IMG/VR virus record: IMGVR_UViG_3300028586_000750
DNA length: 64,000 nt
Source of the DNA: a virus
Direction: 5' to 3' (one strand)
The first letter of the stretch is position 1; each line of letters starts with the position of its first letter. A model generated the notes under the pieces. The model searched no databases and was not told where the DNA came from. It saw only the letters and a program-made list of their open reading frames with translations. Below are positions 35,102 through 50,316 of this stretch, piece after piece. The position numbers and the translations under genes were made by a program.

Positions 35102-36247
35102 TTACTTGGTGCTTGGAGTGTATGAGTAAATAGTTGCCCAGTCAATCAATACGTGACCTGCCGTTGTTTTGGCAGGAATTTTCCCATCGGCTGTTTCTAC
35201 TTGCATTACCCAATGCATTTTTGCGGTAGGAATAGACTCTGTTGTTGAACCAACTGCAACACCATCAATGTAGTAAGTTAATCTTTCAGGTGTCCAGTCA
35301 ATTGTGTATGTATGCCAATCTGTGTATTTAGCATTCGTTTCTACAACCATGCAGTTATTGGCTGGTGCTCCAACGCAATGGTTGTAACCGCGTACGTTAC
35401 CGTTTAGTTCGCCTTCTGGGAAGTCAATTTCTCCATCGTTCCAGTTGTTGTCATCTGACCACAGTAGGAAAGCTGTTTTATATCCTTCTAAGCTGTCTGT
35501 TTTCATACGGACACTGAAACGACCGTATTGTTGTCCGCCCCATTGTTCGTTAACAAGAGGAATAGGCGCTGCTGTTTTAGGTCGACCATCTGCACCTGTG
35601 TGTAGGTACATGTCTAATTTGCTATCGTTAACTGAAATAATACTTTGGTCATAGTCACCATTTTTGAAAGTGTCAGTGAAACCATTGTAGCTCATCCACC
35701 ATCTTGCGTAAGGACCAGGGAAACCACCTGTAGCTACAGGGGTGTTAAAATCCTCGCTGTGGGTCTGAGTCCAGCCAGGCAGGTTTCCCTTAGGCATTGA
35801 TGGGTCGGCGCTCACAGTGGACGCTGGTGGCGCTACAGTAAAGGTTTTGGCGTTATCGCCACCTACTGTCACCCATTGGCCGTTATATAGGACGCAAGCA
35901 AAATAGTTATAAGTTCCAGCAGGTAAAGTCTTCGTCTTTGTTAATGTAGTACCTGTAGTGCTTATAGTCACATTATAACTTTCAGCAAAATCAACATTTT
36001 TATTAGAAGCATCACGAGCACAAATGCTAGCTGATGCTACCTTTGTTGTAAAAGATGATTTGATTGTTGCTTTAGCTGTAACGCTGTTTCCGGTTACATT
36101 TGCGCTCAGGTTTGAGACAGTAAATTTTGGAGTTGCAGCCGAAGCTGGAGTTGCAATCGTCAAAGCTAAAGTAGAAGCAGCTAAAAGGGCTAACCCAGTT
36201 TTAGCTAGAACTTTACGTCTAGGTTTGGTTGTTTTCAGAAGGGACAT
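35102..36247 (-). CDS. secreted GH16 glycoside hydrolase (beta-glucanase-like)
   Basis: Signal peptide ending ASA; YGRFSVRMK, GEIDFPEG (E-x-D-x-x-E catalytic motif), WHTYTIDWTP. Confidence 0.88.
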   Translation of the reverse strand: MSLLKTTKPRRKVLAKTGLALLAASTLALTIATPASAATPKFTVSNLSANVTGNSVTAKATIKSSFTTKVASASICARDASNKNVDFAESYNVTISTTGTTLTKTKTLPAGTYNYFACVLYNGQWVTVGGDNAKTFTVAPPASTVSADPSMPKGNLPGWTQTHSEDFNTPVATGGFPGPYARWWMSYNGFTDTFKNGDYDQSIISVNDSKLDMYLHTGADGRPKTAAPIPLVNEQWGGQQYGRFSVRMKTDSLEGYKTAFLLWSDDNNWNDGEIDFPEGELNGNVRGYNHCVGAPANNCMVVETNAKYTDWHTYTIDWTPERLTYYIDGVAVGSTTESIPTAKMHWVMQVETADGKIPAKTTAGHVLIDWATIYSYTPSTK

Positions 36248-36426: not shown

Positions 36427-36654
36427 TTAAGCCTTTTCCGTATCAAACGAAATTAAGTGTTCCCATGAAATACGCAAACGCTTAGTTTTATTACTAGTGT
36501 CCGCATACTCAAAAATCATATAATGCGGGTTTTCTGAGTTAAGCAACTTAATAAAAGGTGGCACTTTAACTAGGCGAGCAGCCAAAGGCGTCAAAACAAT
36601 GTTTACCTTATAAATATTGTTCGTTCGGACAACATCTTCCATATATTCAGTCAT
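36427..36654 (-). CDS. hypothetical protein
   Basis: Coupled to tyrS stop (TAATG). Confidence 0.65.
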   Translation of the reverse strand: MTEYMEDVVRTNNIYKVNIVLTPLAARLVKVPPFIKLLNSENPHYMIFEYADTSNKTKRLRISWEHLISFDTEKA

Positions 36655-37874
36655 TATAGATTTCCTTTTTCAACAAGAACAAAACGGTTTTTACCTCTTT
36701 TAAGAAGAACCGTTCCTTCAAGAGTAACATCACCAACAGCTTTCAACCCATTAATAGAGATACCACCATCTTTAATCAAACGACGAGCATCAGACAAACT
36801 AGAAGCAAGTTCAGCGTCAACCAAAGTTTTTGTCAAAACGTTACCAGAAGCAACAACACCAATTTCATGACCCAAAGCAGCTACACCTTGTTCATCAAGC
36901 TCAGTGAAAGCTTTCTTGCCAAAAAGGACATTGGTTACATCGCGTACAGTGTTAGCTTTAACTTCACCATGAACAAGCTTAGTTACCTCAAAGGCCAAAG
37001 CTTTCTGGGCTGCACGTTTGAATGGAGCATCTGCAACTTCTTTTTCAAGTGCTTCAATATCTTCACGAGGAAGAAGAGTAAAGATTTTAAGAAAATCAAT
37101 TACACTATCATCTGCGGTGTTAAGCCAGAACTGGAAGAACTCAAAGACGCTAGTCTTGTTCTCATCAAGCCAAATAGCACCGTTCTCTGTTTTACCAAAC
37201 TTTTTACCTGTTGCTTTGTTAACAACAAGGGGTGTGGTAAAGACATGAGCTTCTTGCCCGTCCATACGGCGAATAAGACTTGCACCGGCTGTGCTGTTAC
37301 CCCATTGGTCGCTACCGCAAAGCTGTAATGTTACACCTTTCTCACGGAATAAGTGTAGGAAGTCGTATGCCTGAATTAGAGAGTAACTGAACTCTGCAAA
37401 ACTAATACCAGTTGTCTCTAGACGTGACTGGACAAAACCTCGGGAAATCATTTGCGCTGTAGGAACATTCTTACCTACAGTCATAAGGAACTCAATGAAA
37501 TTGATATCTTTGAACCAGTCATGGTTATCAACAATTTCAAAATCTTGTCCAGCAAAAATCTGCTTGTATTGCTCAACAATAGCTGCTTTGTTACTGTTAA
37601 TTACATCACGTGTTTTGAGGTTACGTTCATCTTTTTTACCATCAGGGTCACCAATAAGACCTGTGGCTCCACCGACTAGAAGAACAGCTTCATGGCCATG
37701 GTTAATGAAATGCTTAACGAGCATTGCTGAGGCAAGATTACCAATGGTCATGGAATCAGCACTAGGGTCCACACCCCAGTAGAACTTACGAGAACCTTCA
37801 TCTAGGCGCGTAATATCGTCTAAAGTAGACTGATTGGCTAATCCTCGCCAAATCAGTTCTTCTGAAAGTTTCAT
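36654..37874 (-). CDS. tyrS: tyrosyl-tRNA synthetase
   Basis: YWGVDPSADSMTIGN, GGATGLIGDP, QAYDF, GSDQWGN, KFGKT, C-terminal S4-like domain. Confidence 0.97.
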   Translation of the reverse strand: MKLSEELIWRGLANQSTLDDITRLDEGSRKFYWGVDPSADSMTIGNLASAMLVKHFINHGHEAVLLVGGATGLIGDPDGKKDERNLKTRDVINSNKAAIVEQYKQIFAGQDFEIVDNHDWFKDINFIEFLMTVGKNVPTAQMISRGFVQSRLETTGISFAEFSYSLIQAYDFLHLFREKGVTLQLCGSDQWGNSTAGASLIRRMDGQEAHVFTTPLVVNKATGKKFGKTENGAIWLDENKTSVFEFFQFWLNTADDSVIDFLKIFTLLPREDIEALEKEVADAPFKRAAQKALAFEVTKLVHGEVKANTVRDVTNVLFGKKAFTELDEQGVAALGHEIGVVASGNVLTKTLVDAELASSLSDARRLIKDGGISINGLKAVGDVTLEGTVLLKRGKNRFVLVEKGNL

Positions 37875-43133: not shown

Positions 43134-46070
43134 ATGTCAAATCGTAAAGTAGTCTCAACCCGAAAAAGAATTATTGCAGGGACACTAACAACGCTATTAG
43201 CGTGTGGTGGTTTTGTTGGAATGGCCGCAACACAGGCATCAGCAGCAACATGGGCGGACCAAGCAAACAGTTCAGCTAAAGAATTACCAACAGCCGCATC
43301 AGCTTATAGCAACAAAGGAATAAGAGTAGCAGACGGAATTAATCCACCAACAAACTCATGGATTTCAGGAGCAGTTTTCGTAGGAGACGGAACACCTAAA
43401 CCAACATTTACAGGTTCCACATCATTTAAAACGTATGATGACAGTTTTGGCGTATTCATGCCTAATATTGTTGCAACACCAAAAACAGTGTTCGGTATGT
43501 ATTCCGATGATAACCAAATCAAATTCAAACCAGCCGGAGCGTCCAGCTACCAGTTAACAAGAATTGATGACATTTCCGCTGACCTAACCTATATGAACGG
43601 TTCACAAAAAGTTGGTACAGTCACATCAGCAGAAGGCTGGCCTTATGTTCAATACAAAGCAAACACAGCACAACAAGTAAAAGTTACAGCACCAAACGCT
43701 ATAACTAAAATTGATGGTGGTTACACTTTTAAAGACAACAATGGTACAACCTACAGAGTTATTACCAGTGCAACTTTGACTGACGGTAACTTAAACCTCA
43801 AAGCAGGCCAAATGGCTCATGTTTATGCGGTACCAAAAAACGCATCAGCGGATGAAATCAAAACTCTCGATGCAGGCGCTGTAGAACTAACAGGTAGTAA
43901 CACCAGTTACGCTATCACCAATGGTGAAGCTGTAACAGAGTTCACATTAAAAACAGTAGATAATAAACCAACTGTGTTTGCATCTATGCCTCACCAAGAT
44001 AAAATAACTAGTAACGGCACCACTTTAAAAAGTACCTACGAAAACCTTCAAGGAACAATGGACTTACTTAGTGGTAACAAGTTTACATACGCTATTCCAG
44101 CGCTTGCAACTCCACTTGATTTAGACCTTTCAGGTATGAGTGATGAAGAAAAGACAACACTTAAAGCTCAAATTCGTGCTGACATTCCAACAGTAACTAA
44201 ATTTGATGCCGAAGGTTCATATTATGGTGGTAAGTACCTTGAACGTGCTGTTCAGGTTTACCGTTTAGCTAAGCAGCTTGATATGAAAACGGAAAGCGCA
44301 ACATTGAAAACAGCTATCACCGCTGAGCTAGACATGTGGATGGACCCTGACCGTTGCGAAACAGAGTCAACTAAATGCTTTACCTATGATGAACTTCTTA
44401 AAGGTGTTGTTGGGCAAAAAGCAGAATATGGTTCTGATACAGAATTTAATGACCATTACTTCCACTATGGTTACTTCTTATATGCTGCGGGAGCTATGGC
44501 ATTAGATGACCCAACATTAGTTTCTAAATATAAGACTGTTGCTGACATTCTTGCTGCTGATATTGCTAATACACAAGATACTGACACAGCAATTGAACGT
44601 CGCAACTTTGATGATTATGCAGGCCACTCATGGGCTTCTGGTGTTTCACCATTCCAAGATGGAAATAACCAAGAGTCAACTAGTGAAGCAACAAATGCTT
44701 GGATTGGTCTTAACCTTTGGGCTACTGCTTCTGGTAACACCGAGTTAGCTACAGAAGCACAATGGATGTTCTCTAACGAAGCTCGCACAGCAGTTCAATA
44801 TTACCTAAATCCTACAAAAAGAGACGGCTTCACGTCGCCTCATCTATCCATGGTTTGGGGAGGTAAAGCAGACTATGCAACATGGTTCAGCGGCCAAGCA
44901 TCAGCTATTACAGGCATTCAAGTTATTCCTGTGGCACCAGCACATATTGCATATTTGAAGAGCGTAGGAGACGCGCAACTTGATGTACTTAGCGATAGCG
45001 TATTTGGAGCTAACAACGAAAATGTTTCAGGTCAACCATTGGTTGATTGGACTGTTGCGTTAACAGCAATGAATGACCAAGAACGTGCTGAATTACTTTA
45101 TGGTAAATTGAAGGACAGTGACATTGATAATGGTAATACTCGTTCTTACTTGTATGCTCTTATTCATTCCGCTGGCGCAGTTGAGTCTGCGCCAGTTATT
45201 CCAAGTAACCCTTCTGAACCAACTACACCCGTGACACCACCCGTAGTTACTCCACCTGTTACTCCACCAGTAACAACCCCCGAGCCAACTACACCACCAG
45301 TAGATAGTGGTAAAGCATCTGCAACAGGCTCATTAACTGATACTGCTGACGGTGACCACACTGTATCTGAAAATGGAAGTATCACACAAAAACTATCTTA
45401 TACAGGGTTAACACCTAATAATGATTATGTTGTTATTACAGAACTGTTTGATACCAAAACTGGTGCAATTGTTGGCGTAAAAGACAAAGTATTCCGCCCA
45501 GCAACAGCAACAGGTGAAACAAGTTTGGCCTTTAGCTACAGCGATAACTTTAAAGGTAAAACAATTGTGGCACATACTCGTTTGTTAGGGCCTGGTGGCG
45601 CTGTAATTGCTAACTTGAATAAAACAAGTGATACAAACCAGATTGTTACTTTCAGTGGTGGACAAACAACACCACCAGTTGTTACCCCACCTGTAACAAC
45701 CCCCGAGGTACCATCCGGTTCTCCTAAGTTTACTTCTGAGCTAACTGATGCTTCTGATGGTGACCACAATGCTAAAAATGGTGCAGAGTTAAAACAAACA
45801 GTTAACTATACAAACCTTAATGCAGGTCAAGATTACGTTATTGTTGTTGAACTGTTGGATGCTACAACTCAACAACCTGTGGGTGTGGTAAAAGACAAAG
45901 TATTCCGTCCATCAACATCAAATGGAACAACCACTTTGAGCGTTCCAACAAGTAACTCACAGAATGGTAAAACCGTATTCGCCAAAGTACGCTTTCTAGG
46001 GCCTGCTGGGGCAGAGTTCAGTAATGTTACTACTGAACTAAATGCAAAACAATCAGTTAAGTTAGGTTAA
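43134..46070 (+). CDS. secreted GH81 endo-1,3-beta-glucanase with PT linkers and two C-terminal VaFE-like repeats
   Basis: Signal peptide (ASA), PPTNSW, FNDHYFHYGYFLYAA, HSWASG, GNNQESTSEA; duplicated LTD.(A/S)DGDH...Y.GL domain; AAGGAGG RBS. Confidence 0.9.
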   Translation: MSNRKVVSTRKRIIAGTLTTLLACGGFVGMAATQASAATWADQANSSAKELPTAASAYSNKGIRVADGINPPTNSWISGAVFVGDGTPKPTFTGSTSFKTYDDSFGVFMPNIVATPKTVFGMYSDDNQIKFKPAGASSYQLTRIDDISADLTYMNGSQKVGTVTSAEGWPYVQYKANTAQQVKVTAPNAITKIDGGYTFKDNNGTTYRVITSATLTDGNLNLKAGQMAHVYAVPKNASADEIKTLDAGAVELTGSNTSYAITNGEAVTEFTLKTVDNKPTVFASMPHQDKITSNGTTLKSTYENLQGTMDLLSGNKFTYAIPALATPLDLDLSGMSDEEKTTLKAQIRADIPTVTKFDAEGSYYGGKYLERAVQVYRLAKQLDMKTESATLKTAITAELDMWMDPDRCETESTKCFTYDELLKGVVGQKAEYGSDTEFNDHYFHYGYFLYAAGAMALDDPTLVSKYKTVADILAADIANTQDTDTAIERRNFDDYAGHSWASGVSPFQDGNNQESTSEATNAWIGLNLWATASGNTELATEAQWMFSNEARTAVQYYLNPTKRDGFTSPHLSMVWGGKADYATWFSGQASAITGIQVIPVAPAHIAYLKSVGDAQLDVLSDSVFGANNENVSGQPLVDWTVALTAMNDQERAELLYGKLKDSDIDNGNTRSYLYALIHSAGAVESAPVIPSNPSEPTTPVTPPVVTPPVTPPVTTPEPTTPPVDSGKASATGSLTDTADGDHTVSENGSITQKLSYTGLTPNNDYVVITELFDTKTGAIVGVKDKVFRPATATGETSLAFSYSDNFKGKTIVAHTRLLGPGGAVIANLNKTSDTNQIVTFSGGQTTPPVVTPPVTTPEVPSGSPKFTSELTDASDGDHNAKNGAELKQTVNYTNLNAGQDYVIVVELLDATTQQPVGVVKDKVFRPSTSNGTTTLSVPTSNSQNGKTVFAKVRFLGPAGAEFSNVTTELNAKQSVKLG

Positions 46071-46236: not shown

Positions 46237-47979
46237 TTAAATATTACCAATCTTTTTGGTATTCGTTGGAACATTAATAAGCTTTGCAATATCCGCTGGG
46301 ATAGGTGTAGCAACACTTACGTTATTTGTTTCATCAGCAGTCATACTGCTAAGAGGAAGAACTGTTTTAGTTATAGCGTTCTTCCATGTTGGATTAATAT
46401 TTTTGTTTAATGCTTCTGGTGTATCATAGCGAATGAAATCACCTGTTGAGTCAGGTGTTACACCCCATGCAACAACAGTGTTTTGACCAGTCTGAGCACG
46501 AACATTGAATAAGTTGCCTGTTAACGTAATGTTTTTAGGAGCGGCATTCAAAGCGTAGAACTGGAACCCTTTAGTGGCACCAAAAGTGTTGTTAGCAATG
46601 GTGATATCTTTTGTTACCCATGAAACAGTAGGGTCTGGTAACGGTTGACGTGGGTCATGACCAGGAACTTTAGTGTCTGAGGCTAAACGACTATCTTGTG
46701 CTACACGAACAGCGAAGCGAGAGTTATTTTCAAACTCGTTATTGTAAACTTTTACGTCACCAGTGCCCACAATGGTTAAACCATCTGTTTGGTTACTGGA
46801 ACTGTTGTTGGCAACAATAACTTTTTGAGACAATTCAAGAGAAATACCTGTTGAACTGTTGTTATTAGTAATGCTGTTGGTAATAGACGCGTTGTAAACG
46901 GATTCGTCTAACCAAATACCTGCACCCCAGTTGTTACTTGAATAAAGGTTGTCAATTTTAACATCACGTGAACGTGTGATTTTGAAACCGCCAGCCACTG
47001 GTGCTTGTTTGAATTGCTGGAAATTGTTTTGTTCAATACGTGAGTTCGTGAAGGATGAACCGTATGCTGCGTTAGAACCTAAACCAAGCATTCCGCTTCT
47101 TAGAATAGTTACATGGTCAACTTTAGCATTGTTGTTACTCATGCTAAGACCAAGGTATGCGTTGTCTTCTATTTGAAGGTTTTGTGCTGTAGCGTTAATG
47201 TTAACCATACGGACAGCAGCTTGGTCTTCACTTGTTGAAGCGTAACGTCTTACACCAAAACCTTGAAGTGTTGTTCCTGCTGAGTTAACCATGATACCGG
47301 CACTCAAGTTGCTTATACGAACTTCTTTACCTACGGGACTTGTTCCAATAATAACTTTTTTAGCCACAGTATCAACGTAGAAAGTATTACTTTTAACTTC
47401 TGCGGCAGTGGCTACTTGTGTCATCTGCACACCATTAATGAACACTTGGTCACGTTTAGACGCTAAAGGATGGTCTTTATGTACGTAACGTGGGTTATCT
47501 GCGATACCATCAATTACTGATGATGGGAAGAAGGACCAAGGGGTTGACCATGTTGTACCATTTTGTGTCCATGTGGTTACTTTTTGCGAACCATCAAACC
47601 ATACAGTTTCTTTAGGATAAGCCTGAATGGTAAGAGGTTTGCTGTAAGGGACATTAATGCTTTCGTTGTACTCACCTGCACGTACAACAACCGTTTGACC
47701 TGCTTTAGCTTTTGTAACAGCAGCTTGAACTGTTTTTAATGGGCTTGCTAGCGTCCCTGCGGCTGTATCAGAGCCTGTTGGAGCTACAACAAGTGCAGTA
47801 GAAGGGACAGCATAGTTTGTCGTTCCTAGCTTAGCTGAGCCTTGCGTTGATGATGGTCCAGTTACAGGTAGCGTTGCAGCGTTTGCACCGGTTACTGTAA
47901 TTAGCGGAGAAACAAGAAGAGCGATAGTTATAGCACCTACCGCTCGTTTCTTTTTACTAAAAATAGATAGTTGTTTCAT
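46237..47979 (-). CDS. secreted right-handed parallel beta-helix protein (pectin-lyase-like fold)
   Basis: Signal peptide (ANA); VAPTGSD..AGT...PLKT, VVVRAGEY, N-rich I.NN repeats. Confidence 0.83.
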   Translation of the reverse strand: MKQLSIFSKKKRAVGAITIALLVSPLITVTGANAATLPVTGPSSTQGSAKLGTTNYAVPSTALVVAPTGSDTAAGTLASPLKTVQAAVTKAKAGQTVVVRAGEYNESINVPYSKPLTIQAYPKETVWFDGSQKVTTWTQNGTTWSTPWSFFPSSVIDGIADNPRYVHKDHPLASKRDQVFINGVQMTQVATAAEVKSNTFYVDTVAKKVIIGTSPVGKEVRISNLSAGIMVNSAGTTLQGFGVRRYASTSEDQAAVRMVNINATAQNLQIEDNAYLGLSMSNNNAKVDHVTILRSGMLGLGSNAAYGSSFTNSRIEQNNFQQFKQAPVAGGFKITRSRDVKIDNLYSSNNWGAGIWLDESVYNASITNSITNNNSSTGISLELSQKVIVANNSSSNQTDGLTIVGTGDVKVYNNEFENNSRFAVRVAQDSRLASDTKVPGHDPRQPLPDPTVSWVTKDITIANNTFGATKGFQFYALNAAPKNITLTGNLFNVRAQTGQNTVVAWGVTPDSTGDFIRYDTPEALNKNINPTWKNAITKTVLPLSSMTADETNNVSVATPIPADIAKLINVPTNTKKIGNI

Positions 47980-48165
47980 TGTTGAATTACCTTTCCTCAT
48001 GGTATTTTTTTGAATACAAAATGAACCCTTAATATGGGTGCACTCTATCCCCGTTTTAAATATCTGCATTTTGTTTAAGACCGCAACATAATAGGAAAAG
48101 TCTGGTATCAAAATGGTTAACACTTTAATACCAGACTTTTCCTAGAAAACTTTAGATAAGAATAG

Positions 48166-48414
48166 TTATTCTCCAAAAATAGCTACTCTTGCTGTTCCCA
48201 TAGCTTCTACAATCTTATCTTCCGCCCAAGATACAATAGCTTCTTTTTCATCTTCTGAGTAAATAACTTCAGAGTCGCTGACTCTATAGTTATATAAGTA
48301 TTCGTTGATAGTAGACCAACTCGTATCGCCTTCACCTGATAGCCAGTTGTTAAGAATGACGTGAGCTAATTTATCTACGGTTTCTTTATGGTCTTCATAC
48401 TTTACATCTGACAT
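48166..48414 (-). CDS. hypothetical protein
   Basis: AAGGA RBS before MSDVKY. Confidence 0.7.
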   Translation of the reverse strand: MSDVKYEDHKETVDKLAHVILNNWLSGEGDTSWSTINEYLYNYRVSDSEVIYSEDEKEAIVSWAEDKIVEAMGTARVAIFGE

Positions 48415-48544
48415 TATTTTCCTTTGTTTATGCGGGATATTACTCAATCTTACCATTTTTTGTCACATAAATCAACTTATGGTTTTGTTTGTTTCTACCT
48501 GTGTCTGGTCTATTTTTGTTTTTCTGTTTGTTTGAATTAGACAT

Positions 48545-48580
48545 AAAAAATACCCCCCATTATAAAAATGGGGGGTATTT
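48545..48580 (-). terminator. intrinsic terminator closing the ncRNA transcript
   Basis: aaatacccccatt..aatggggggtattt hairpin followed by T-run on the minus strand. Confidence 0.75.
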
Positions 48581-48929
48581 CGTAGCGAGTGTCAGCTTTA
48601 GCTCATGACTTCTGCCGCTGTCTTCACTACTACAGATTTTCACTGTTTGCCTCTTGCCACCTTCGGGTCTGAGCCAGTCCCTAATGGAGGATAGTATCCG
48701 CCGACACGTCCTTTGGTCTGTTTGCCTTGGTTATACAAACACAATACTTATTTTTATCCGTTATTCCTGGTGTCCCTCCCTTGCCACCATTACAGCAGCC
48801 GAGTTTGACTCAAAGTATTTTACAGTTTTTACCTATGCAGTTAACAACTCACTGTCAGTTTCTACGGTTTCACGATAACCGCCAACGGAACATCTTTCAG
48901 GCGCGACCCGTCAATTTGTTCACTCACAG
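48581..48929 (-). ncRNA. large ornate structured RNA, ROOL-like
   Basis: No ORF on this strand; 5'/3' closing helix GTGAGT/ACTCGC, long-range GTGTCGGC/GCTGACAC and GGCTCA/TGAGCT helices, many hairpins; directly 3' of tRNA-Lys. Family assignment is from recalled similarity only. Confidence 0.55.
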
Positions 48930-49002
48930 TGCCCTCTCAGGGACTCGAACCCTGGACCCAACGATTAAGAGTCGCTTGCTCTACCAACTGAGCTAAAAAG
49001 GC
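48930..49002 (-). tRNA. tRNA-Lys(CUU)
   Basis: Full cloverleaf, anticodon loop CT-CTT-AA, GGTTCGAGTCC. Confidence 0.95.
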
Positions 49003-49220
49003 GTAAATAGTGGAGAAAATGGGAACTTCCCTACATTTTCTGCACTAGACTTGGTTTTCCACTCGGGGCTATGTCAAGCCCCTGCCATCGGATTTGCTGT
49101 CTGTTACGATAAGCTCCCGGCCCGTTCCGAAGTGTACCTTTAGTATCGGTTGAATAAGTTCAAATCAGATTCAAACAAAACTAAAGTTGTTTATGTAAAT
49201 CTCTTTTGTGTTATAAGTTA

Positions 49221-49249
49221 AGTTTAACAGACCTTCATAGCAATGTCAA
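49221..49249 (-). promoter_or_regulatory. SigA-like promoter for the tRNA-Lys/ncRNA transcript
   Basis: TTGACA-N17-TAAACT. Confidence 0.75.
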
Positions 49250-49380
49250 ACTATTTTGTTAAATTTAAGTCCAGTTAGAGGCCAGTGTCATCATAATGAT
49301 GTAAAGAGCTTTCTAAGTACCAGGACTTAGTAGAGGCTACCTTTCCCCTATGGGGCACCTGCATTACTGGAACAGTCAAT

Positions 49381-49500
49381 AAAAGTAAGATGAATTAAAG
49401 ATTCGAACTTTCCAGCAGAGTGTACACTCCGTCCAAGCATCCACGGAATCGAACCGTGTTCCTAGCTACTGTGGCCTACGTTGTATCTTCACTTACTTTT
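49381..49500 (-). ncRNA. structured RNA with two T-loop hairpins
   Basis: Closing stem AAAAGTAAG.TGAA/TTCA.CTTACTTTT enclosing CACGG-TTCGATT-CCGTG and AAAG-TTCGAAT-CTTT. Confidence 0.5.
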
Positions 49501-49502
49501 CG

Positions 49503-49575
49503 CTGGGGTAACTGGACTCGAACCAGTAACCTTAAAGTTAACAGCTTTCTGCTCTGCCAATTGAGCTATACCCCA
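49503..49575 (-). tRNA. tRNA-Asn(GUU)
   Basis: Cloverleaf TGGGGTA/TACCCCA, loop CT-GTT-AA, G73. Confidence 0.95.
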
Positions 49576-49783
49576 ATGAAGGATAATCTAATGACATCTT
49601 AGGGCTGGTCCACGTCCTTATCGCTCGCCTGCCGGAATTACTGACTTTGCAGCATTGACCTTCGCCGTATTTGGCTCTGTCATTACTTCTCTCACCTAGG
49701 AAAGAAGGGTGTTGGCTCTATTGTTTTATAGTATTTCATTTAGGAAGACTTACCTATTTGTGTGCTTCCTTGCTTATGTATCT

Positions 49784-49813
49784 ACAATAGCACGCTTTCG
49801 TCAACCATGTCAA
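49784..49813 (-). promoter_or_regulatory. SigA-like promoter upstream of the ncRNA island
   Basis: TTGACA-N18-TATTGT. Confidence 0.65.
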
Positions 49814-49848
49814 CTCAAAAGCAAACTATTTTGAAAAAAGTTTTGAGC

Positions 49849-50202
49849 TTAATCTAGACGGTATGCAACAAGGGTTGCACGTGATGGATTGAACTGGGTA
49901 ACAAAACGCCACCCTGCGCAATCGCGTAGCCCAATACCAATAAGCGTATAATGCTCAGCATCCAACGAGTTAGAATCAGTTGTAAGCATTAGCTGAGGGC
50001 TACCCTTTTCAAACTCATCAAAAGGATGCTCAACAAAGACATAATTAATATTAGCCTCTACAGTGTCAATTTCCCAAACACGTAGGTTATTCTTTTTAGT
50101 AAGAAGCTTTACAGACTTAACCTTAATATCACCTTCATGCATTACTGCGGTTTTGCGATACACAGGTGTCACTTGTAGCCTTTTAACAAGGGGGTTGCGC
50201 AT
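49849..50202 (-). CDS. hypothetical protein
   Basis: GAGAG RBS. Confidence 0.7.
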   Translation of the reverse strand: MRNPLVKRLQVTPVYRKTAVMHEGDIKVKSVKLLTKKNNLRVWEIDTVEANINYVFVEHPFDEFEKGSPQLMLTTDSNSLDAEHYTLIGIGLRDCAGWRFVTQFNPSRATLVAYRLD

Positions 50203-50316
50203 TTTTATCTCTCAATTCTATTGAATAATATATGATTTAAGACTAACATAGTTGATGATATAGTTCAAGCCCCAACAAATATTATGTTGGGGCTTGAACT
50301 ATAGTTTTGTGCTGAT

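Follow-up and report, generated by a model that had tools for sequence, protein, structure and literature searches.

The tRNA-Lys transcription unit

The window (the whole stretch of 64,000 nt analyzed here, from IMG/VR virus record IMGVR_UViG_3300028586_000750) belongs to an ORFan-rich genome with tRNA arrays, a TyrRS and secreted glycoside hydrolases; no capsid or terminase gene was seen within its 64 kb. The tRNA cluster comprises at least 10 tRNA genes in the window, as identified by ARAGORN and Rfam. It includes a minus-strand unit of about 670 nt, in which a leader, a tRNA-Lys gene and a conserved stretch, referred to below as the element, lie between a promoter (49249-49221) and an intrinsic terminator (48581-48547). 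The features of the unit are as follows.

49221..49249, minus strand: sigma-70-like promoter, TTGACA-17-TAAACT with extended TG
49003..49215, minus strand: 5' leader of the tRNA-Lys precursor, ~210 nt, with a conserved core at 49048-49167
48930..49002, minus strand: tRNA-Lys(CUU) gene, boundary with the element at 48929/30 (ARAGORN; Rfam tRNA model, 66 bits)
48582..48929, minus strand: the element, body of the ncRNA, 348 nt (~350 nt), conserved and abundant, supported by RNA contigs and conservation
48547..48581, minus strand: intrinsic terminator, G-C-rich stem followed by a U tract

This arrangement agrees with a preliminary description of the locus, which had placed an RNA directly behind tRNA-Lys and had bracketed the two with a promoter and a terminator. 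The tRNA-Lys gene does not encode the CCA end, and the element begins right after the discriminator base. The junction ACTGTGAGTG is also present in L004, a 617-kb contig of a distant relative, where a terminator of different sequence occupies the equivalent place (L004 11752-11789). The leader core is 83% identical in L004, and the leader folds with a z-score of -2.58. The nonamer GGTGGCAAG, described earlier as a twice-repeated motif, indeed has exactly two copies in the 64-kb window, and both lie within the element (48780-88 and 48653-61), with about 0.5 copies expected by chance. The element has no paralogues elsewhere in the 64-kb window.

The promoter at 49221-49249 is not universal, since its region is replaced in the relative L001 (alignment columns 477-630 deleted or replaced). 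There, at L001:5949-6000 as compared with window 49216-49380, ~110 nt including the tRNA-Lys promoter are missing and ~50 nt of unrelated sequence stand in their place; the tRNA-Asn promoter may drive the tRNA-Lys unit in this strain. One RNA contig from the window's locus (48971-49249) extends into the promoter, so some transcription also comes in from upstream.

The tRNA-Asn unit (window 49358-49790, minus strand) has its own promoter-like site at 49813-49784, a conserved leader of ~200 nt and, 3' of the tRNA, a tRNA-like domain of 120 nt (49381-49500). It is 98-100% identical in L001 and in a further relative, L003, and an RNA contig (49358-49581, depth 17) covers the tRNA-Asn together with the tRNA-like domain. 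A tRNA-like T-arm, GGGGTTCGATTCCCC, was found at L004:10960-11010, just upstream of the tRNA-Lys leader of that contig, and gives a partial match to a tmRNA 3' end (E = 0.009).

Relatives, conservation and non-coding status

The 333-aa protein encoded in the neighborhood of the unit forms only four clusters among 5.8 billion proteins, and the contigs reached through it measure up to 791, 788 and 617 kb. The element-bearing contigs of 791, 788 and 617 kb come from leaf-litter and straw metagenomes. The record size for a phage genome has been given as 735 kb (PMC7162821); if the 791- and 788-kb contigs are phage genomes, they exceed the record cited in that paper.

The copies fall into two lineages. 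Lineage A consists of the window, L001 and L003, with the gene order of the window. Lineage B consists of L004, L005 and L006, in which the leader core, tRNA-Lys, element and terminator follow an IleRS gene, and the gene downstream of the unit is unrelated to the downstream gene of the window (no alignment at E<=100). The tRNA and the RNA behind it are thus kept as a module across different gene contexts.

The unrelated downstream genes bear on the possibility that the element is a cis-regulatory leader (T-box-like, riboswitch or attenuator) gating read-through into the next gene. Such a role would account for the strong terminator at its end; aminoacyl-tRNA synthetase genes lie nearby in L004, and UGGU/GGUGG motifs recall those of T-boxes. 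A cis-regulatory role is nevertheless extremely improbable because the downstream genes differ between the lineages. In addition, no T-box or riboswitch model matched at E<=10, and the RNA follows a tRNA in what is probably a single transcript.

Within lineage A the element is nearly invariant. L001 differs from the window at one position (347/348 identical). In L003 all 348 positions are identical to those of the window, an identity to which recent recombination could have contributed in part. The flanking DNA of L003 differs from that of the window by 4.9%, and the flanking genes by 3.8% (96-aa product), 4.6% (628-aa), 7.1% (117-aa) and 12.6% (333-aa); a divergence equal to the 4.9% of the flanks would have put about 17 changes into the element, where 0 are seen (P ~4e-8). 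The element of L004 is 80% identical to that of the window, with the tRNA at 86%, a dCMP deaminase gene at 79%, the 333-aa neighbor protein at only 35% and nearly everything else unalignable. In this comparison, rewritten hairpins or segments alternate with stretches of 33, 22, 20 and 16 nt that are unchanged. Strong purifying selection, accompanied by compensatory changes, acts on the element.

Apart from chance matches of 19-22 nt, scans of IMG/VR, of JGI metagenome contigs and of GTDB genome contigs gave no further homologue of the element. Among INPHARED phages the tRNA was matched and the element was not. No homologue was detected by nhmmer in the 20-kb neighborhoods of TyrRS and IleRS genes of more distant relatives, and an exact-protein look-up with the 96-aa neighbor gave no match. 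With only two diverged lineages known to carry the element, the power to detect covariation is low.

As stated in the preliminary description, the transcript holds no open reading frame. No credible ORF spans the element on either strand, and the RNA strand has none longer than 34 aa. Two ORFs on the plus strand (74 and 89 aa) lack support, and the longer one overlaps the tRNA. Substitutions relative to L004 lack 3-base periodicity (counts of 18, 26 and 26), and any reading frame would be disrupted by the four internal indel columns (1, 1, 1 and 2 nt). A protein-coding element was rejected on these grounds.

Accumulation and folding of the RNA

The stretch is contained in 20 public runs from leaf-litter and straw metagenomes, including 6 leaf-litter metatranscriptomes. 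Four RNA runs (X15, X16, X17 and X18) were compared over positions 48000-50300. In three of them, all leaf-litter metatranscriptomes, the element was assembled as a separate contig of 319-347 nt, 100% identical to the window, as listed here with mean contig depths.

X15: element contig 48574-48920, depth 72; leader/tRNA depth 2
X17: element contig 48602-48916, depth 480; leader/tRNA depth 4.1
X18: element contig 48585-48903, depth 470; leader/tRNA depth 3.5

The leader and tRNA contigs of these runs have depths of 2-5 (leader contigs within 48934-49204, 2-4.7 only) and the flanking protein genes 0-4, so that the element contig is 36-134-fold deeper than its neighbors; these depths are per-contig means of assembled contigs and as such a poor measure of expression. 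DNA carry-over cannot account for a step of this size between adjacent contigs. The element accumulates well above the rest of its precursor (72, 480 and 470 against 2-5). Non-coding and strongly conserved, it exists as a discrete RNA of high abundance. The proposal of a discrete structured RNA behind tRNA-Lys, against which the lack of a stable transcript from this interval was to count, is thereby upheld. Run X16 yielded a leader/tRNA contig and no element contig, a kind of gap that proves nothing.

The element contigs stop 9-26 nt short of the tRNA 3' end. Their opposite ends range from 7 nt within the terminator stem to 21 nt short of it. Only one contig (48910-49117) spans the junction with the tRNA, reaching less than 31 nt into the element. 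Contigs by themselves do not prove ends or strand; the X17 element contig carries Illumina adapters at both ends (48602 and 48916), in an orientation matching that of the minus-strand tRNA-Asn contig, which hints at fixed ends and a minus-strand RNA, these being contig data from a library of unstated type.

In minimum free energy (MFE) the element does not surpass shuffled sequence (z-scores of 0.09 in the window and 0.30 in L004). Of its two strands, the minus strand gives by far the more stable fold (-88 vs -68 kcal/mol for the plus strand). Folds computed independently for the window and L004 have 64 of about 100 pairs in common. When only the window is folded, 33 predicted pairs vary in L004 and 24 of them stay standard pairs, 11 with changes on both sides; with the partners slid, 78 of 202 (39%) stay paired (Fisher p = 3e-4). 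The RNAalifold consensus contains 14 double-change pairs, compared with 4.7 in shuffles and 0-3 with slid partners, a count biased in its own favor by fitting to the same alignment. Three helices have two or more double changes, against 0.6 expected. Some 16 helices are predicted by the consensus, along with one large junction and one or two small ones. In the window/L004 alignment no pseudoknot exceeded the level of shuffled controls. Most core helices are invariant between the two copies and hence outside the reach of a covariation test. The principal predicted parts, written as RNA, are the following.

48864..48882, minus strand: 5' hairpin GCGGUU-AUCGUGA-AACCGU with invariant loop; closing pair G-U becomes A-U in L004
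48626..48841, minus strand: central multi-helix domain, predicted independently from the window and L004
48688..48712, minus strand: covarying hairpin AGGA-c-GUGUC / GAUAC-ua-UCCU; inner stem ACAAU/GUUGU in L004
48657..48687, minus strand: variable-hairpin arm; base CCAUU/GGUGG becomes CCGUU/GGCGG in L004
48593..48620, minus strand: 3' hairpin with invariant loop GAAGUCAUGAGCU; stem CAGC/GCUG becomes CAAA/UUUG in L004

Comparison of the two copies indicates that several of these hairpins are maintained by compensatory change. In the hairpin at 48688-48712 all five inner pairs are kept, three through changes on both sides and two through a change on one side; a helix like it arose in 1 of 60 column shuffles. 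The tip of the variable arm (48657-48687) is wholly different in L004, where a hairpin is still predicted to form. The central domain would be closed by the long-range pairing of ACUGCAUAGGU (48841-31) with AUCUGUAGUAGU (48637-26), together with ACUGU (48826-22) and ACAGU (48646-42); this closing helix appears in both folds, and covariation cannot speak for or against it, as both strands are invariant. The loop GAAGUCAUGAGCU contains the sole conserved 6-nt palindrome, UCAUGA (48603-48608), which could also pair with the invariant UCGUGA loop (48870-48875) of the hairpin at 48864-48882. In the modeled fold, these invariant loops are possible sites of tertiary contacts or of contacts between molecules.

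Some helices proposed earlier fit this model and others do not. The hairpins CGGTT/AACCG and GTTTG/CAAAC are present in the MFE fold. The pairing GTGAGT/ACTCGC, thought to close the whole domain, occurs in the MFE fold of the window and keeps five of six pairs in L004, yet is absent from the fold of L004 itself. A long-range helix between GTGTCGGC and GCTGACAC is broken in L004, and its GTGTC pairs instead locally with GATAC, covarying to ACAAT/GTTGT. The second long-range helix, GGCTCA-GAC/GTC-A-TGAGCT, has no counterpart in L004, and the GAGT/ACTC hairpin is broken there.

The results on selection bear on whether the element could be a functionless 3' trailer of the tRNA that accumulates because the terminator hairpin and local structure shield it from exonucleases. 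The high abundance, the end at the terminator and the fold-energy z-score near 0 would all suit a by-product of this kind. Selection on the element makes it unlikely: no change was seen in 348 nt where 17 were expected, 80% of positions and identical blocks of 33 nt persist across lineages whose spacers cannot be aligned, and compensatory changes keep the hairpins while the terminator itself is free to change sequence.

Relation to known RNAs and proposed role

Covariance models of Rfam 15 were searched at the gathering threshold and then with permissive filters and E<=10 on 48300-49500 and on L004 10800-11900. At the gathering threshold only tRNAs were found, with no ROOL or GOLLD; at E<=10 both the window and the L004 copy gave nothing beyond tRNA except terminator-hairpin noise. 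ROOL, GOLLD, T-box, ribozyme, RNase P, tmRNA, 6S and SRP models were thus all without a match at E<=10, and ARAGORN identified no tmRNA. As judged by these models, the element is not ROOL, GOLLD, a T-box or a member of any other Rfam family; for T-boxes the unrelated downstream genes of the two lineages point the same way.

ROOL and GOLLD are RNAs of phages and prophages that lie near tRNA genes and are abundant (PMC5737381; bioRxiv 10.1101/2024.12.08.627333), and some GOLLD copies are directly downstream of a tRNA or have tRNAs in their linker (bioRxiv 10.1101/2024.12.08.627333). [quoted passage not shown] The element resembles ROOL (RF03087), a large ncRNA that adjoins or follows tRNA genes, probably shares their transcript and can reach extreme abundance, in lying directly 3' of tRNA-Lys in the tRNA cluster of a phage-like genome; with GOLLD (RF01998) it shares the setting of phage tRNA islands. 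The element occupies the niche of these RNAs: it lies in a tRNA island within a phage-like genome, is apparently transcribed together with a tRNA and reaches high abundance.

The preliminary description had gone further and likened the element to a compact ROOL. The element does share the genomic niche of ROOL and GOLLD; the likeness found no confirmation in the covariance-model searches, membership in either family lacks support, and a compact or highly diverged member of either is very unlikely. Two diverged copies gave no covariance-model match to either family at the gathering threshold or at E<=10, and the homologue contradicts two of the long-range helices proposed earlier. The element is also much shorter (~350 nt) than ROOL (~581 nt) and less than half the length of GOLLD (>800 nt). 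Neither the six junctions and three pseudoknots of ROOL nor the conserved 3' core of GOLLD is seen in the element, and no pseudoknot is supported in its predicted fold.

Phage ribozymes linked to tRNAs are known. In both lineages the element begins exactly at the 3' end of the tRNA, as would be expected if its 5' part were a self-cleaving ribozyme (HDV-like or theta-like) trimming the tRNA 3' trailer, with the rest as passenger. That explanation is barely plausible, given that no ribozyme family matched at E<=10 and that a ribozyme of 70-100 nt would leave conservation over the whole 350 nt unexplained.

Stable RNAs cut from tRNA precursors include the species 1 and 2 RNAs of phage T4 (rnaC and rnaD, of the T4 tRNA cluster) and the 3'ETS-leuZ sponge of E. 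coli. They share a transcript with a tRNA, are released by tRNA processing and accumulate as discrete RNAs, a course also proposed for the element. The element exceeds them two- to fivefold in length and is predicted to adopt a conserved multi-helix fold. A base-pairing regulator or sponge of the 3'ETS-leuZ type, derived from a tRNA spacer and acting through the invariant single-stranded blocks on host or phage RNAs, would have the same biogenesis, and the long invariant blocks could be seed regions. We consider such a role distinctly unlikely, since ~350 nt with many conserved helices far exceeds the known spacer-derived sponges and since shuffled sequences pair at least as well as the element does with the leader and tRNA-Lys of its own unit.

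The element probably represents a new family of stable, structured, trans-acting ncRNA of ~320-385 nt that is cut from a tRNA-Lys precursor. It would be transcribed as the 3' part of a leader-tRNA-Lys-RNA-terminator unit and freed by tRNA 3'-end processing, with its own 3' end at or just before the intrinsic terminator. The leader would then be degraded and the element RNA would accumulate to levels tens to more than 100 times higher. Its fold, supported in part, would comprise a short 5' hairpin domain, a central multi-helix domain with a long-range closing helix and a 3' hairpin with an invariant loop. The element does not look like an mRNA or a cis-regulator, and most likely it would function in trans as a folded particle, either bound to protein or assembled with itself. 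We rate it as a new family within a known kind, and by sequence and structure we assign it to neither ROOL nor GOLLD, and probably to none of the tRNA-precursor RNAs named above.

A more specific version of this proposal is possible, if on balance improbable: the element could be a third and much smaller class of phage RNA, beside ROOL and GOLLD, that is made with a tRNA and self-assembles into an RNA-only particle. ROOL itself forms an RNA-only homo-octameric cage. In the element, contacts would be made through invariant loops, for example through UCAUGA or through its pairing with UCGUGA. If so, phage-like genomes that are among the largest known (0.6-0.8 Mb) would produce an RNA of this type along with a tRNA.

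Large, highly structured RNAs of bacteria and phages are rare, and each new class has so far led to new biochemistry, such as ribozymes and the assemblies of OLE, ROOL and GOLLD. For the element, evidence of expression is at hand from the outset, and its ~350 nt are small enough for chemical probing and cryo-EM. It extends the pairing of a tRNA with a large RNA beyond ROOL and GOLLD, suggesting that such pairs serve some general function linked to tRNA islands, and offers a compact model for asking what the RNAs of these islands do.

The sources of the element are phage-like genomes of 0.6-0.8 Mb from decomposing plant litter that encode their own tRNAs and tRNA synthetases. The TyrRS of the window (36654-37874, minus strand) is closest to that of Candidatus Saccharibacteria (60-64% identity), and the lineage-B IleRS (L004:7608-10796) is closest to that of Microbacteriaceae (~55% identity); these affinities point to different donors or are clues to the host. 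On a related contig of 696 kb, the region L034:1901-4913 encodes a tRNA with a CTA anticodon, designated tRNA-Pyl by ARAGORN, which may be an amber suppressor, and also two tRNA-like genes with abnormal anticodon loops. Near the tRNA island of the window are genes for GH16, GH81 and pectate-lyase-like beta-helix proteins (35102-36247, 43134-46070 and 46237-48123), an unusual cargo that fits a plant-litter habitat.
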